From: a virus
Lineage: Duplodnaviria > Heunggongvirae > Uroviricota > Caudoviricetes
DNA: 39,288 bases
Direction: 5' to 3' (one strand)
Virus record (IMG/VR): IMGVR_UViG_2740892273_000013
The notes below the pieces were generated by a model that was not told the origin of the DNA, did not search any database, and was given only the letters and a program-made list of their open reading frames with translations. Within the stretch, counting starts at the first letter, position 1. Each line of letters begins with the position of its first letter. The translations under genes and the position numbers were made by a program. Shown here in pieces: positions 6,039 through 14,978 of this stretch.

Positions 6039-6871
6039 ACAGTTTAACGGCAAATAACCGTTTGTCGCAACAGCTGGTGGTCAGCGTCGCTGAACACCTG
6101 TTGTTACGGCATGAATGCAGATTACCAAATCACCTGGCTGTAAGTAACCACAGAGAACTTTACCTGACTGTGGGGGGCGAGTTGTGCAGGAACTTAACCG
6201 CTGGTTTCGTGACGGAAGAGGACTTTATGTTCATGTTATTCGTTGGGAGCCAGAAACACAGCGCGTTATCTATCTTCGCAAAGACTACCCGCATGAGTGC
6301 TTTAGTCCTTTGTGGAAATTCAGGCGTGATTTTGTTGAGTGTGAAGGACCACCAGCACATTGATTCTGCCATTCCGGGACGTTACACTGTTCAGGCACCT
6401 TATAAAGCGGGTGCCGGGATTGGCGTCCTGGAATTGATCAAGGCGATATATGACGCGCCAGCGTCTTTTTTATCGTCCGCATTTGCTCACATCAAAGTTA
6501 TGGTGGGCTGGGCGGGGGCATCGAAAGATGCGCCGGTTTCCTTGATCACCGGTTACGCCAACCCCGTTCAGTTCACCACCAGCGAAATTGGCGTTTCCGG
6601 TGGTGGAAGTATTTCACCGATCAAGGAGGCTGCCATCATGGCTACTGTCCCAGCCCTCACTCGTCTGAATGATGAAGACTTACATAAACTCAGTTATGTA
6701 ACAACTGCACTACGTGCTCTGCGCAAGGTAACTCTTTCGGATCCGCAGGCACATCAGGTTCTGGTAGAAACCCTTCTTAACTTGCAAGCTGAACGTATTC
6801 GTCTGGCGGATAAGGCTAATTTTCATATTCACCGTCTCCTGAATATCAGCGGAGGGCATCGTCATGCTTAA
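6035..6871 (+). CDS. Hypothetical protein (278 aa)
   Basis: ATGA overlap with upstream gene suggests translational coupling; no recognisable motif. Confidence 0.4.
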   Translation: MNSLTANNRLSQQLVVSVAEHLLLRHECRLPNHLAVSNHRELYLTVGGELCRNLTAGFVTEEDFMFMLFVGSQKHSALSIFAKTTRMSALVLCGNSGVILLSVKDHQHIDSAIPGRYTVQAPYKAGAGIGVLELIKAIYDAPASFLSSAFAHIKVMVGWAGASKDAPVSLITGYANPVQFTTSEIGVSGGGSISPIKEAAIMATVPALTRLNDEDLHKLSYVTTALRALRKVTLSDPQAHQVLVETLLNLQAERIRLADKANFHIHRLLNISGGHRHA

Positions 6872-7915: not shown

Positions 7916-8406
7916 TCATGAGTCTTTTGAATGAAGTTCAGAAATTCATTGAAGCCCATCCGGGGTGTACTTCCGGAGACATTGCGGATGCTTTTGCAGG
8001 TTACTCACGGCAGCGCGTTCTGCAGTCAGCAAGCAAGTTACGTCAGAGTGGGCGTGTGGCTCACCGTTATGAAGGAGATACACGCAGACATTTCCCACGC
8101 CTGACTGAGAGAGCGCAGGAGCCGGAACCACAACCAGTTCGTGAAACCAGACCTGTGCGCAATTTCTATGTCGGCACTAACGATCCCCGGGTGATTTTGT
8201 GCCTGACCCGCCAGGCGGAAGAACTGGAGTCCAGGGGCTTATACCGTCGTGCTGCAACGGTGTGGATGGCGGCATTCCGTGAAAGCCACTCCCAGCCAGA
8301 ACGAAACAATTTTCTGGCGCGTCGTGAGCGGTGCTTACGGAAAAGCAGCAAGCGCGCTGCATCGGGTGAAGAGTGGTATCTGTCAGGGAATTACGTGGGG
8401 GCTTAA
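7912..8406 (+). CDS. PerC-like transcriptional regulator with N-terminal winged-helix domain
   Basis: C-terminal EELESRGLYRRAATVWMAA...RRERCL resembles the PerC signature recalled from memory; ATGA coupling to upstream gene. Confidence 0.45.
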   Translation: MIMSLLNEVQKFIEAHPGCTSGDIADAFAGYSRQRVLQSASKLRQSGRVAHRYEGDTRRHFPRLTERAQEPEPQPVRETRPVRNFYVGTNDPRVILCLTRQAEELESRGLYRRAATVWMAAFRESHSQPERNNFLARRERCLRKSSKRAASGEEWYLSGNYVGA

Positions 8407-9059
8407 TGAGTAATAAATATTGCCAGGCGCTGGTGGAGCTGCGGAACAAACCAGCCCATGAACTGAAGGAAGTGGGCGATCAGTGGCGCACGCCGGATAA
8501 CATTTTCTGGGGAATTAACACCCTGTTTGGCCCGTTTGTTCTGGATCTGTTCACTGATGGTGATAACGCCAAATGTGCCGCTTATTACACTGCGGAAGAC
8601 AACGCGCTGGCGCATGACTGGTCTGAACGTCTTGCGGAGCTTAAAGGTGCTGCCTTTGGTAATCCCCCGTACAGCCGCGCCAGTCAGCATGAAGGGCAAT
8701 ACATCACCGGCATGCGTTACATCATGAAACATGCCAGTGCCATGCGTGATAAGGGCGGACGCTATGTTTTCCTGATCAAAGCTGCCACCAGCGAAGTGTG
8801 GTGGCCGGAAGATGCAGATCATATTGCTTTTATTCGCGGGCGTATTGGTTTTGAACTGCCTGCCTGGTTTATCCCGAAGGACGAGAAGCAGGTGCCGACA
8901 GGCGCTTTCTTCGCTGGTGCTATTGCTGTTTTCGACAAGACCTGGAAGGGACCGGCAATCAGCTACATCGGGCGCGATGAACTTGAGGCATGTGGTGAGG
9001 CGTTTCTGGCGCAGGTTCGCCAGCAGGCGGAAAAACTGGTCAGGGAGATGGCGGCATGA
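8406..9059 (+). CDS. Phage Dam-family N6-adenine DNA methyltransferase (orphan)
   Basis: NPPY motif (GNPPYS) in the translation; no adjacent restriction endonuclease gene. Confidence 0.65.
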   Translation: MSNKYCQALVELRNKPAHELKEVGDQWRTPDNIFWGINTLFGPFVLDLFTDGDNAKCAAYYTAEDNALAHDWSERLAELKGAAFGNPPYSRASQHEGQYITGMRYIMKHASAMRDKGGRYVFLIKAATSEVWWPEDADHIAFIRGRIGFELPAWFIPKDEKQVPTGAFFAGAIAVFDKTWKGPAISYIGRDELEACGEAFLAQVRQQAEKLVREMAA

Positions 9060-11607: not shown

Positions 11608-12360
11608 ATGAACCTTGAAGCCTTACCAAAATATTACTCCCCAAAATCTCCAAAATTGAGCGATGACGCACCGGCGACAGGCTCAGGTGGTTTAACGATT
11701 ACGGATGTGATGGCTGCGCAGGGGATGGTGCAGTCGAAAGCACCGCTTGGGTTTGCCTTATTCCTGGCAAAAGTTGGTGTTCAGGATCCTCAATTTGCGA
11801 TTGAAGGTCTGCTCAATTACGCGATGGCACTGGATAACCCGACATTGAACAAATTGAGTGAAGAAACCCGGTTACAGATCATCCCTTACCTTGTGAATTT
11901 TGCCTTTGCTGATTATTCCAGGTCTGCGGCAAGTAAGGCTCGCTGTGAGCATTGTGCTGGTACTGGATTTCATAATGTATTGCGCGAAGTGGTGAAACAC
12001 TCCAGAAGCGGGGAATCTGTTATCAAGGAAGAGTGGGTGAAGGAACTATGTCAGCATTGCCATGGTAAGGGAGAAGTCAGCACAGCGTGCAGAGGGTGTA
12101 AGGGTAAAGGTATTGTCCTGGATGAAAAAAGAACCCGGCTTCATGGTGTGCCTGTTTATAAGATTTGTGGGCGTTGCAATGGCAACCGGTTTAGCCGTTT
12201 ACCAACCACACTGGCGCGGCATCATGTCCAGAAACTGGTACCGGACCTGACGGATTATCAGTGGTACAAAGGATATGCAGACGTTATTAATAAACTGGTT
12301 ACAAAGTGCTGGCAGGAAGAAGCGTATGCTGAATCGCAATTGAGAAAAGTGACAAGATAG
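11608..12360 (+). CDS. Q: Late-gene antiterminator Q
   Basis: 250-aa translation with multiple CxxC zinc-finger motifs; located directly before a late promoter and short terminated transcript. Confidence 0.75.
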   Translation: MNLEALPKYYSPKSPKLSDDAPATGSGGLTITDVMAAQGMVQSKAPLGFALFLAKVGVQDPQFAIEGLLNYAMALDNPTLNKLSEETRLQIIPYLVNFAFADYSRSAASKARCEHCAGTGFHNVLREVVKHSRSGESVIKEEWVKELCQHCHGKGEVSTACRGCKGKGIVLDEKRTRLHGVPVYKICGRCNGNRFSRLPTTLARHHVQKLVPDLTDYQWYKGYADVINKLVTKCWQEEAYAESQLRKVTR

Positions 12361-12420: not shown

Positions 12421-12467
12421 TTTCTCAACGATGGGCCTTGTATGTCTACCGTTGGTAAATGTCAAAA

Positions 12468-12490
12468 ACCCGCCGCTGAGCGGGTTTTTT
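12468..12490 (+). terminator. tR'-like intrinsic terminator
   Basis: Stem ACCCGC / GCGGGT with loop CGCTGA followed by TTTTTT. Confidence 0.7.
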
Positions 12491-12648
12491 GTGCCTGATG
12501 TCTCATGAAACTATGAAATGGATTGGTGCGTTAAACATTTTTTCTTATTATCTTTTAGATTTTGGAGAGATGGTTAACGTCTGTATTCCAGAAACTCGAT
12601 GGTTATTTAATAAATTAGTTTCAATGATGCTTCTAGGTTATGACTGTA

Positions 12649-13065
12649 ATGAAAAAGGTATTAATAGCAGCGATAGGTTTTTGTTTAGTTGGTTGTGCAG
12701 GTATGAAATTACCTGAGTATTCGCAAGTTAAAGCAAGTCCGTATTATACAGATTGCCGTGCGTTTGCCATGGATGTTTATAAAAATGATGGATACAGCAA
12801 AATTGCGAAAACTACTATCCTTAGCATGGATGATGTGAAAGCTAGATATATTGTGACAGGGTGTGTAGTTGCTATGGGGAAAAACACTGTAGAGGAAATC
12901 AAAGCTGATCTCTCTGCTAAAGGGAGTTCTTTTGGGCTTATCAGTGGAGCTTGTTCTAGTGCGGCATGTCGGGTTGATGTAGAGCAGCAAATGAACGCTT
13001 ATGTACTTGGTAGTTATTATGCTGCAAATAAAAAATTCCCGGATAAAATGAAAGCAGAGTTTTAA
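12649..13065 (+). CDS. Lipoprotein of unknown function encoded by an AT-rich inserted gene
   Basis: Signal peptide with lipobox LVGC (MKKVLIAAIGFCLVGCAG); AT-rich codon usage; flanked by two near-identical terminators. Confidence 0.6.
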   Translation: MKKVLIAAIGFCLVGCAGMKLPEYSQVKASPYYTDCRAFAMDVYKNDGYSKIAKTTILSMDDVKARYIVTGCVVAMGKNTVEEIKADLSAKGSSFGLISGACSSAACRVDVEQQMNAYVLGSYYAANKKFPDKMKAEF

Positions 13066-13143
13066 GCAAACCTTGTTTTCGATTATATGTCGAAGATAAA
13101 TGTTAGTAACGGCATAATAAGTAAATATATAGCTGTGATAGCA

Positions 13144-13166
13144 ACCCGCCACTGAGCGGGTTTTTT
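13144..13166 (+). terminator. Second copy of the tR'-like terminator
   Basis: ACCCGCCACTGAGCGGGTTTTTTGT, near-identical to 12468-12490. Confidence 0.65.
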
Positions 13167-13288
13167 GTACCCGTAAACTTGGTGCAGTACAGTAAACACG
13201 CTGGTGGTCGTGAATACTGACTTTTTATCTTGCTGGCTTTTTAGACAAGAGTTATTGGTATGTCATGTTAACCAGAAGGGAAAAAGAC

Positions 13289-13492
13289 ATGCTAAAACAG
13301 CAAGATATGACAGAAACCGCCGCCGCAGTCCTTCATTTCTTACCTGCTGACAAGTGGGTAACGCCACGCATGATGACGAGAACTACCGGAGTAAGCGAAG
13401 CCCGGTGCCAGTTAATACTGACTCAGTTAGTTCTGGCGGGTCTGGCGAAGGATAACGGCGGGTACGGGAATAAATTCAGACGCTGCCAGTAA
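13289..13492 (+). CDS. Small putative winged-helix DNA-binding protein (67 aa); alternative start at 13265
   Basis: AAGGG before ATG at 13289; helix-rich translation; lies upstream of the methyltransferase gene. Confidence 0.35.
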   Translation: MLKQQDMTETAAAVLHFLPADKWVTPRMMTRTTGVSEARCQLILTQLVLAGLAKDNGGYGNKFRRCQ

Positions 13493-13642
13493 TGGCGGTT
13501 TCCTGCTGTGAAAATGGGCGGCTGGTGGGTGTTGGTAGCACCTGCCAGCCATTCGCTCATGCTTACTGGTCACAAGCGAACCACGGCCCACTGCTTTAGC
13601 GCAAAAGCAGAGTGAGCCTACCAGAGTTACGCTTACTGATCC

Positions 13643-14695
13643 ATGAAAAATACTGTAAAAATAAACAGTGTTGATTTAATCAACGCTGATTGCCTGCATT
13701 TTATTCAGTCCCTGCCTGATGATTCCATTGACCTGATTGTTACCGATCCGCCTTACTTCAAGGTGAAACCCAACGGTTGGGACAATCAGTGGAAAGGGGA
13801 CGAAGATTACCTTAAGTGGCTGGACCACTGTCTGGCCCAGTTCTGGCGGGTGTTGAAACCTGCCGGAAGCCTTTACCTGTTCTGTGGGCATCGCCTGGCA
13901 TCTGATATTGAGATCATGATGCGTGAACGTTTCAACGTGCTTAACCATATCATCTGGGCGAAGCCGTCCGGACGTTGGAATGGGTGTAATAAAGAAAGTC
14001 TGCGCGCATATTTTCCTGCCACAGAGCGCGTTCTGTTTGCTGAACATTACCAGGGGCCATATCGCGGCAAAAGTGACGGCTATGCGGCAAAAGAAAGGGA
14101 ACTCAAACAGCACATAATGGCACCGCTGATATCGTATTTCAGGGATGCTCGTGCCGAACTGGGTATAACGGCAAAACAAATTGCCGAAGCCACAGGTAAG
14201 AAAAATATGGTTTCCCACTGGTTTGGTGCCAGTCAGTGGCAGTTGCCGAATGAGGCTGACTATCGGAAGTTACAGGCACTGTTTTCCCGTATAGCGGCAG
14301 AGAAGTTTCAGGAACAACAACTGGAACAACCACACCACCAGCTGGTGGCATCTTATGATTCACTGAATCGTAAATATTCTGAATTGCTGGATGAGTTTAA
14401 ATCTCTCCGGCGCTATTTCTCCGTATCAGTCTCCGTGCCTTATACCGATGTCTGGATGCATAAACCCGTTCAGTTCTACCCGGGGAAACATCCGTGTGAG
14501 AAACCGGCGGATATGCTCAGGCAAATAATCAATGCCAGTAGTCGACCAGGTGATCTGGTTGCTGATTTTTTTATGGGATCCGGTTCCACAATAAAAGCAG
14601 CAATGGCGCTGGGGCGTCGGGCCTTAGGTGTTGAGCTTGAGTCAGAGCGGTTTAATCAGACAGTGAAAGAGATAAACGAGCTGGTGGGGAAATAA
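13643..14695 (+). CDS. DNA methyltransferase, N6-adenine/N4-cytosine type with motif order IV then I (orphan)
   Basis: DPPY near the N-terminus and FxGxG (FFMGSGST) near the C-terminus; no adjacent endonuclease. Confidence 0.7.
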
Positions 14696-14701
14696 TCTGG
14701 T

Positions 14702-14727
14702 GGCCACGTCAGGTGGCCTTTTTATTT
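14702..14727 (+). terminator. Intrinsic terminator after the methyltransferase gene
   Basis: GGCCAC-GTCAG-GTGGCC followed by TTTTTATTT. Confidence 0.6.
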
Positions 14728-14762
14728 CCATTACACAGCACCCGCATCTGCGAGGTGGGGTT

Positions 14763-14978
14763 ATGAAATCCATGGATAAGTTAACAACGGGTGTCGCCTA
14801 TGGCACCTCAGCAGGTAGTGCCGGGTACTGGTTTTTACAGTTGCTCGATAAAGTCACGCCCTCACAGTGGGCGGCAATAGGTGTGCTGGGTAGTCTGGTA
14901 TTTGGCTTGCTGACGTATCTGACAAACCTTTATTTCAAGATTAAAGAAGACAAGCGTAAGGCTGCACGGGGAGAGTAA
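14763..14978 (+). CDS. S: Pinholin (phage 21 S21-like), 71 aa with dual-start M-K-S-M
   Basis: Translation [31 protein letters not shown]... closely matches S21 as recalled from memory. Confidence 0.85.

Follow-up and report, generated by a model that had tools for sequence, protein, structure and literature searches.

A conserved and possibly two-state leader RNA ahead of an M.EcoGII-family methyltransferase gene in lambdoid prophages

How might a temperate phage hold in check the gene of a DNA methyltransferase whose close relative is toxic when it is made constitutively? The locus that raises this question lies in a 39,288-nucleotide stretch of Caudoviricetes DNA (IMG/VR record IMGVR_UViG_2740892273_000013; the whole of it is called "the window" below, and positions refer to it) that is a lambdoid Escherichia coli prophage: the part used as query has 100% identity with E. 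coli A14 and 99% identity with phages Ayreon, mEp460 and cdtI. Between the antiterminator gene Q and the holin gene, a small open reading frame (ORF; 13289-13492) is separated by a spacer of 150 nucleotides (nt) from a methyltransferase gene (13643-14695), both on the + strand. A sequence-only reading had likened this pair to a controller protein with its methyltransferase. The analysis presented here directs attention to the spacer instead: we judge it reasonably probable that the locus is a three-part late module, made up of an M.EcoGII-family methyltransferase, a two-state leader RNA that gates its translation, and a winged-helix partner.

The enzyme and the conserved RNA ahead of it

The methyltransferase gene is intact and specifies a β-class enzyme: the match to PF01555 covers residues 29-341 (E=2e-42), DPPY at residues 35-38 and FMGSGS at 310-315 stand in the β-class motif order, and the nearest solved relatives are also β-class enzymes. 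The 350-residue methyltransferase with DPPY first and FxGxG second that had been read from the letters is thus confirmed, and the profile search proposed at that time supplies its subfamily (PF01555, β class). An identical protein (100%) is encoded by phage cdtI. Alignment with M.EcoGII (349 residues) is full-length and free of large gaps, with 281 of 349 residues identical (81%; the reference sequence is that of Table S1 in PMC11551740, taken from machine-read text that contains a few errors), and membership of the M.EcoGII family is close to certain. M.EcoGII methylates adenine in any sequence context, is deleterious or toxic if expressed constitutively and is unexpressed in the lysogen (PMC5778455); it also binds and methylates RNA (PMC5778455, PMC11551740). 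The reconstructed ancestors of its clade all methylate both DNA and RNA, and the two that were profiled, Anc291 and SUPREM, show no sequence motif, that is, they are non-specific (PMC11551740). By extrapolation from M.EcoGII (81% identity), M.EcoGI and these ancestors, the window enzyme would likewise modify adenine whatever its context; because it is that similar to a non-specific enzyme, the earlier suggestion that it protects phage DNA from restriction is plausible. PADLOC returns generic MTase_II models only, which does not support membership of a known defence system.

The module is present in 1482 of 5426 complete E. coli genomes (27%). It is carried by phages mEp460, cdtI, Ayreon, SfV and phiP27, by Stx2c and Stx2a phages, and by phages of Hafnia, Morganella, Citrobacter, Yersinia and Vibrio. 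Such recurrence makes a chance arrangement untenable, and a module this common also means that the methyltransferase gene itself is of an already known kind. An E. albertii homologue that is 95% identical to M.EcoGII has the same leader RNA upstream. Many Stx2a phages (TL-2011c, ArgO145, Stx2_716; matches H97-H104) retain only the last ~35 codons of the gene (residues 316-350, 66% identity), which suggests a remnant left by deletion in the same slot upstream of stx.

The structured 5' leader RNA of the methyltransferase gene occupies 13508-13642 (+ strand) and was recognised by conservation and covariation. In six diverged phages the spacer is 138-153 nt long and is better conserved than the small ORF that adjoins it; for Hafnia, Morganella, phiP27 and phiNP its identity is 64-83%, as compared with 33-46% at the 4-fold degenerate sites of the methyltransferase gene, the latter being near saturation. 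One of its two predicted folds (fold A) is a three-way junction of helices P1 (13515-13519 with 13586-13590), P2 (13520-13531 with 13539-13550) and P3 (13552-13561 with 13571-13580), followed by hairpins P4 (13591-13597 with 13604-13610) and P5 (13612-13617 with 13631-13636), all on the + strand, to which G-U pairs assign the RNA. Fold A was set by hand and refined with covariance models; RNAalifold, applied to a raw MAFFT alignment of 46 sequences, recovers P1 and the outer part of P2 only, because the inner helices are misaligned there. Among 99 non-identical sequences (alignment A5), 36 of the 40 fold A pairs have changed on both sides, and the covariation score is 0.364, as against 0.127 for shuffled alignments, of which none in 500 reaches it, and no more than 0.073 when partners are slid; A5 was itself fitted to fold A by covariance model, which inflates these pair counts. 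An earlier alignment made with MAFFT only gives 0.117 versus 0.077, again with none of 500 shuffles as high. P2, P3 and P4 are rewritten among relatives with their pairing preserved, and the nucleotides of the junction are nearly invariant: AAAUGGGC (RAAAUGGGC), CAU, and AnCnAGGCCCA. Fold A leaves UGAUCCAUG of the start region unpaired and 13637-13650 free.

The element keeps its place. Of the 167 loci whose sequence reaches far enough, 166 have the methyltransferase ATG at +128 to +132 nt from it. Species-representative genomes and viral contigs were scanned with a pattern, which revealed it in many Enterobacterales, and the covariance model finds it 5' of methyltransferases that share no more than 48-61% identity with that of the window (Yersinia phage P840, 65.9 bits; VHML, 39.3; PhiR46_1, 38.0), where P2 is wholly rewritten and still paired. 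These diverged loci were reached through distant queries; searching with a seven-sequence methyltransferase alignment had returned close relatives only. Among 100 diverse viral contigs, 64 have the element 5' of the gene, and never on the opposite strand (66 of 101 with a refined model). Leaderless members of the family have, in some cases, another conserved motif and, in others, a terminator and a Shine-Dalgarno sequence only.

We consider it very probable that the leader is a conserved structured RNA, and as a two-state leader it is apparently undescribed: searching Rfam 15 at gathering thresholds over the whole window gives nothing in the module region, searches at E<=10 on 13150-13750 and at E<=0.1 on four distant loci give nothing relevant, the spacer holds no tRNA or tmRNA, and no description of an RNA motif upstream of these methyltransferase genes was found in the searchable literature. 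Three other identities were entertained and rejected: 1) a hammerhead-like core (on inspection, the CUGAnGA and GAAA motifs are absent); 2) the small RNAs of enterohemorrhagic E. coli prophages (AgvB, AsxR, HnrS), which differ in size and position; and 3) conservation across phyla, on the strength of pattern matches in Alphaproteobacteria, which turn out to lie in a protein-coding gene (MGGW...GASHGIGYILG) or to be due to chance. That gene, in Acetobacteraceae and other Alphaproteobacteria (L015, L028, L043, L051 and similar), repeats the hairpin pattern with a 19-nt gap and identical spacing, a coding coincidence.

Could the conserved block be a DNA element (promoter, operator or sigma-dependent pause site)? 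A -10-like GAAAAT or TAAAGT does stand just 5' of GGGCGG in all lineages, and a terminator directly upstream would fit the start of a new transcription unit. Conservation over 130 nt, in which changes compensate each other helix by helix and G-U pairs are specific to one strand, argues the other way, as do the want of a conserved -35 element, the varying spacing of the extended -10 and a promoter scan that is empty there, and we hold a DNA-level function to be highly improbable. Still less credence can be given to a small protein encoded in the spacer (ORFs 13492-13599 or 13508-13615) or to a separate trans-acting small RNA. Frames are open over the element in several lineages, with a recurrent 'QGPLL' peptide, but single-base indels shift the frame between lineages and the block AACCAAGGCCCA is invariant even at would-be 4-fold degenerate positions, with the adjoining P2 'codons' wholly rewritten; the spacer is therefore taken not to be coding. 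The fixed distance to the ATG, and the absence of a terminator between element and methyltransferase gene, speak against a separate small RNA.

Other sequences stand 5' of some methyltransferase homologues. In Vibrio-like viral contigs, a motif of the form GCCTTGAGTACCTGAGACC-hairpin-GGAGAGGAAGC (L335-L364, at ~1030-1100; L326-L342, L467 and L475, at ~830-900) substitutes for the leader in some contigs and lies directly 5' of it in others; it has no significant Rfam match, and a sub-threshold istR match (E=0.015) lies just upstream. A further group of methyltransferase homologues (L369, L370, L384, L394; ~1050-1170) has a terminator and, after it, a GC-rich leader (TGCAATATGCCCCGCCGGGCG...) that is not picked up by the covariance models; it is perhaps a diverged variant, or else a leader of a third kind.

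Two exclusive folds and what may choose between them

The minimum-energy fold of 13506-13665 is a second one, fold B (-56.9 kcal/mol, z=-3.45); enforcing fold A yields -55.4 kcal/mol, at a cost of 1.5 kcal/mol. In fold B, AUGGGC (13514-13519) pairs with GCUCAU in the 5' strand of P3 (13555-13560), extending P2, and the remainder of P3 pairs with the start region: its loop and 3' strand at 13568-13572 with 13637-13641, and its 3' strand at 13574-13578 with 13630-13634. Overall, then, 13568-13578 pairs with 13630-13641, ending one base before the ATG. In an alignment made independently of structure (A2), the fold B helices are 97.8% and 87.6% paired and four of their pairs have changed on both sides. 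Two P3 positions that are mismatched in ~70% of sequences in fold A are always paired in fold B, and in VHML the pairing AUGGGCG:CGCUCAU is replaced by GUGGGCG:CGCUCAC. Complementarity between the 3' part of P3 and the start region, exemplified by GUCAUAAG:CUUAUGAC in Vibrio-type loci and by GGUUAU:AUGACC in VHML, is specific to each sequence: over 36 sequence clusters, cognate duplexes average -9.5 kcal/mol and non-cognate duplexes -7.15 kcal/mol, and none of 20000 permutations is as strong.

Two conserved, mutually exclusive and nearly isoenergetic folds are the reason for reading the leader as a bistable translational switch, and towards that reading, which the predicted structures support, we lean slightly. 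The methyltransferase gene lacks a canonical Shine-Dalgarno sequence; a conserved UGAUC(C/U) precedes its AUG, and base pairing of this segment with GAUCA, close to the 16S rRNA 3' end, is conceivable. The proposal is that pairing of AUGGGC with the 5' strand of P3 would release the P3 loop and 3' strand to take up the start segment, so that fold B would block translation initiation and fold A would permit it. The leader would thus constitute a second lock on a dangerous enzyme. The methyltransferase would be made late, from the Q-antiterminated pR' transcript reading through the flanking terminators, and by methylating phage DNA as this replicates, before it is packaged, the enzyme would render progeny resistant to adenine-sensitive restriction enzymes.

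What might tip the balance between the folds? It could be a protein, of the phage or of the host, or else the methyltransferase; it could be S-adenosylmethionine (SAM) or S-adenosylhomocysteine (SAH); or it could be the kinetics of folding during transcription. No specific one of these can be called anything better than unlikely. Two of them amount to distinct explanations of the leader. The first would have the three-way junction serve as the aptamer of a true riboswitch, with a small molecule (SAM and SAH being the obvious choices) selecting fold A or fold B. The leader does combine riboswitch-like features, an aptamer-like conserved core, covarying helices and an alternative expression-platform fold: junction nucleotides are invariant where stems vary and covary, and the alternative, exclusive fold is close in energy to the first. 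The gene under control would, moreover, consume SAM on a large scale. Against a riboswitch are the lack of likeness to the known SAM or SAH riboswitch families or to any other Rfam family, and the fact that the invariance of UGGGC is open to a different explanation, possibly its having to pair in both folds. On this evidence we think a small-molecule switch quite unlikely.

The second would make the leader a translational operator to which a protein binds much as Com does to mom mRNA, be it a host factor, the winged-helix protein or the methyltransferase, which would then repress its own synthesis. Several facts make this attractive: M.EcoGII has RNA among its substrates, binding as well as methylating it (PMC5778455, PMC11551740), there is precedent for such control of toxic phage modification genes (PMC3299994, PMC6483171), winged-helix domains such as that of SelB can bind RNA hairpins, and a Com-like ORF appears to be under the leader's control in some lineages. 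Winged-helix gene and leader are nevertheless found independently of one another, and a non-specific enzyme has no obvious need of so ornate a conserved junction; a protein operator is, in our estimate, unlikely, if not greatly so.

The Com-like ORFs merit description for their own sake. Com is the translational activator of mom, the toxic adenine-modification gene of phage Mu (PMC3299994, PMC6483171), and in Mu-like prophages the genes of Hin1523 and Hia5, both non-specific adenine methyltransferases, come after a Com homologue (PMC3299994). In 14 distant loci, including that of Vibrio phage Val-yong3, a Com-like zinc-ribbon ORF of 36-51 codons lies between leader and methyltransferase gene (for example MTKLIELRCYKCGAKLCEFIGTVSIKCKRCKTLVKESAKSA; L328:1035-1160, L331:1025-1141, L340:1034-1159 and L483:2501-2617). 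Its best Pfam match, Zn_ribbon_Com, is below threshold (19.2 versus 22.9 bits, E=8e-4), and a BLASTP alignment with Mu Com (E=0.001) brings the cysteine pairs into register. In this group the P3 part of the leader is complementary to the start of the Com-like ORF, and the methyltransferase gene has a strong GGAGG, apparently sequestered in a hairpin. No Com zinc-ribbon ORF is present at 13493-13642 of the window. Homology of the leader to that of Mu com-mom is rejected: the covariance model finds nothing in Mu com-mom. In the Val-yong3 record the Com-like ORF is annotated as 'DNA-directed RNA polymerase subunit P' and a minus-strand coding sequence (2093-2455) is called over the RNA element; both labels look wrong.

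A number of points weigh against the bistable switch and the module built around it, beyond the inflation of the A5 pair counts by fitting to fold A. The assignment of 'on' and 'off' to the two folds comes from base pairing only. P1 is almost invariant and consequently covaries little (three of its pairs show rare changes on both sides, in 1-2 of 99 sequences each). The permutation test on duplexes counts related sequences as independent, and complementarity of P3 to the start region is weak in one lineage (the L357, L371, L375 and P840 type). A -10-like GAAAAU lies just 5' of P1, and transcription might start there. About one third of the diverse family members have no leader or have other leaders, so that the leader is not indispensable. 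Finally, the non-specificity of the window allele extrapolates from an enzyme that is 81% identical to it.

A more far-reaching version of the proposal can be formulated, and we consider it doubtful: that the leader represents a new class of regulatory RNA, bistable and possibly sensing a ligand or protein, that would license translation of a non-specific, genome-wide methylase only at the proper moment of lytic growth, from the lambdoid prophages of E. coli to Vibrio myoviruses (in which it would instead gate a Com-like activator), and that the winged-helix protein would be no transcription factor but a dedicated partner, one that might, for example, read or shield hypermethylated DNA.

The winged-helix gene

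What, then, is the small ORF? It can start at ATG 13265 (75 codons) or at 13289 (67 codons; MLKQQDMTETA...), and the latter is the conserved and annotated start, preceded by a Shine-Dalgarno-like AAGGGA. Its product (13289-13492, + strand) matches phrog_331 (E=5e-26), a family whose function is not annotated, and has weak matches to MarR_2, TrmB and DnaD_N; some of the 150 homologues retrieved by database search are named 'TrmB family transcriptional regulator' by NCBI. An AlphaFold2 model built on a 28-sequence alignment (pLDDT 87) has the order helix-helix-helix-strand-strand, and Foldseek finds only winged-helix domains for it, albeit with weak E-values: size-normalised, the Z-alpha domain ranks first (1qbj; TM 0.84, rmsd 1.1-1.3 Å), then IclR, TrmBL2, PefI and SelB. 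Z-alpha domains are marked by a Trp in the wing and, in helix 3, by conserved Asn and Tyr residues. Helix 3 of the small protein (EARCQLILTQLVLAGLA) and its wing (GGYGNKFRRCQ) are without these residues, and identity with Z-alpha is rejected. The model and the family matches identify the small ORF as a genuine, conserved winged-helix protein. The claim of a 67-residue DNA-binding protein accordingly survives as regards the fold (phrog_331, AlphaFold2, Foldseek), the helix-turn-helix (HTH) being of another kind than Xre: no HTH_3/Xre domain is matched even at E<=10.

The family appears to be a mosaic. Across the window ORF and its homologues (P0020-P0117) there is hardly any variation in the N-terminus (MLKQQDMTETA) or in helix 3 (RCQLILTQLV), and the middle segment and the C-terminal tail each come in two forms that recombine between lineages.

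Does this protein control the methyltransferase gene? In the controller model, the small ORF would be a C-protein-like factor that binds an operator within 13493-13642 and times transcription of the methyltransferase gene. Its position is as such a model would have it (adjoining, upstream and on the same strand); the winged helix is typical of DNA-binding regulators, a point to which the NCBI label of its relatives adds; and it accompanies the methyltransferase in lineages that have no leader (21 of 35). Against the model, there is no restriction gene whose expression would have to be delayed, and the Xre/HTH_3 fold of controller proteins is missing, so the likeness to a controller protein is not supported. 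The C-box that might have been expected between 13493 and 13642 is not there either: no C-box-like palindromic operator occurs, and the inverted repeats of 13150-13700 coincide with RNA helices, containing G-U pairs and undergoing compensatory changes, P2 even being wholly rewritten in distant relatives. Leader and methyltransferase gene occur without the small ORF in 27 of 157 enteric loci, and most loci have a terminator between the two genes. A controller role is very unlikely on these grounds.

The winged-helix gene is a frequent partner of the methyltransferase gene, and gene and leader are each found without the other: the small ORF is upstream of the methyltransferase in ~83% of enteric loci and in 68 of 101 diverse loci (47 of 66 loci with the leader and 21 of 35 without it, in the diverse-member profile). 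A nucleic-acid-binding regulator or accessory factor is the most likely role for its product.

The end of the gene has a further feature, a hairpin over the stop codon (TAA 13490-13492) that extends over 13482-13504 (+ strand, -11.9 kcal/mol) and is followed by UUCCU. In the window it is U-poor and not called as a terminator, and would be a weak one. Most of the related lineages that were inspected have a hairpin with a U run at the same site, directly 5' of the leader, a few being without an obvious hairpin; in enteric lineages the stop codon lies in the hairpin loop and the U run comes after it. One may speculate that a terminating ribosome would cover this hairpin and so couple translation of the small ORF to transcriptional read-through.

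The setting of the module and its known counterparts

The module lies in the late region of the prophage. Q (PF03589) occupies 11608-12360 and a tR'-like terminator lies near 12455-12498, both on the + strand. An ORF of 141 codons follows (12640-13065, + strand; phrog_4748, without Pfam or NCBIfam match), succeeded by a Rho-independent terminator at 13143-13170 (+ strand; stem 13143-13162, then TTTTTTGT; -11.2 kcal/mol) that is annotated in Ayreon and marks the 5' boundary of the methyltransferase module. Because it has its own terminator and a lipoprotein-like N-terminus (MTVMKKVLIAAIGFCLVGCAG), the 141-codon ORF has the appearance of a moron cassette in its own right; SfV and the Hafnia and Morganella phages lack it, and in them the module comes directly after tR'. 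The location between Q and holin that the sequence-only reading had given is correct, except that this cassette with its terminator intervenes between Q and the small ORF. A second Rho-independent terminator (14702-14727, + strand; stem 14702-14718, GGCCAC-GTCAG-GTGGCC, then TTTTTATTT; -12.2 kcal/mol), annotated in Ayreon and SfV, closes the module, so that the methyltransferase gene does have a terminator of its own, as had been noted.

Downstream are an S21-type holin gene (14763-14978, + strand), DUF1327, lysozyme and Rz. The holin gene has the dual-start motif MKSMDK (ATG 14763 and 14772) that is typical of S21-type holin/antiholin pairs, and the RefSeq and Ayreon records differ in their choice of start. 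Gene and domain annotation shows no nuclease gene in the neighbourhood of the methyltransferase, whose neighbours are Q, the 141-codon ORF and these four lysis-region genes; that it stands without an endonuclease gene was correctly seen, as was its being the second methyltransferase gene of the window, the first (8406-9059) belonging to the Dam family (PF05869). The window's only Rfam matches at gathering level lie in the early region of the prophage and are isrK (6395-6471, 64 bits) and C4 antisense RNA (6496-6583, 82 bits), both on the + strand.

Transcription with the late genes or from a promoter of its own had been offered as alternatives. Placement in the late operon between flanking terminators favours the first; for the second there is no evidence, the promoter scan being at chance level (5 promoter-like sites versus 5.0 expected), in contrast to terminators, which are enriched (8 versus 2.6 expected). 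A block 5' of the small ORF (13230-13254, + strand; TTGCTG, 12 nt, AGAGTTA) is invariant in an alignment of six diverged phages, its flanks differing. It does not have the form of a canonical sigma-70 promoter, and the scan did not call it as one; a promoter that is weak or needs an activator would be conceivable, as would an RNA element.

Why should this arrangement matter? M.EcoGII is a widely used tool for footprinting of chromatin and RNA, and its family is present in about one quarter of E. coli genomes, including those of Stx, cdt and SfV converting phages. A leader switch may explain why the enzyme is undetectable in lysogens, and the model offers an experimental handle on the timing and the means by which temperate phages evade restriction through hypermethylation of their DNA. 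If it is right, the multi-layered control of Mu mom would extend to a different enzyme family and phage group, and a new family of structured RNA would be added. There is also a consequence for annotation: spurious ORFs are currently called over the leader element.

How does the module compare with systems already described? Its slot is that of the lambdoid 'moron' cassettes downstream of pR' (Juhala et al. 2000; Tree et al. 2014, PMC4104026), terminator-bounded inserts between Q/tR' and the lysis genes, and the same slot holds stx genes and prophage anti-sRNAs (PMC4104026). The module differs in having no detected promoter of its own, and the known small RNAs of the slot are 51-66 nt long and lie 3' of moron coding sequences, not in a 5' leader (PMC4104026). 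Restriction-modification systems with C proteins (C.PvuII, C.AhdI) resemble it in placing the gene of a small nucleic-acid-binding protein (binding being predicted here) just 5' of a modification gene. C proteins, however, are Xre-type HTH dimers that bind C-box palindromes and time the expression of a nuclease; here there is a winged helix, no C-box and no nuclease.

With translational riboswitches such as SAM-III (the SMK box) the leader shares a conserved-core junction, covarying stems and an exclusive fold that pairs the start region; it differs in having no Rfam match and in that initiation seems to proceed through UGAUC(C/U) rather than a canonical Shine-Dalgarno sequence. The enzyme has its nearest counterparts in M.EcoGII and M.EcoGI of E. 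coli O104:H4 prophages (Murray et al. 2018, PMC5778455), on the strength of 81% identity (with M.EcoGII), β-class motif order and prophage setting; the published work deals with the enzyme only, without an upstream winged-helix gene or leader RNA (PMC5778455).

The closest parallel in regulation is Mu com-mom: a toxic adenine modifier of broad specificity in a temperate phage, expressed late, with its start site occluded by RNA structure (PMC3299994, PMC6483171), an occlusion that is predicted for the present leader. The components are not the same. The window has no com, its leader is larger, with a three-way junction and an alternative fold, and its enzyme is of the β class, as distinct from Mom, which has an acyltransferase fold, and from the Dam-like Hia5. 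By analogy, the regulatory logic of the module nonetheless appears to be that of Mu com-mom.

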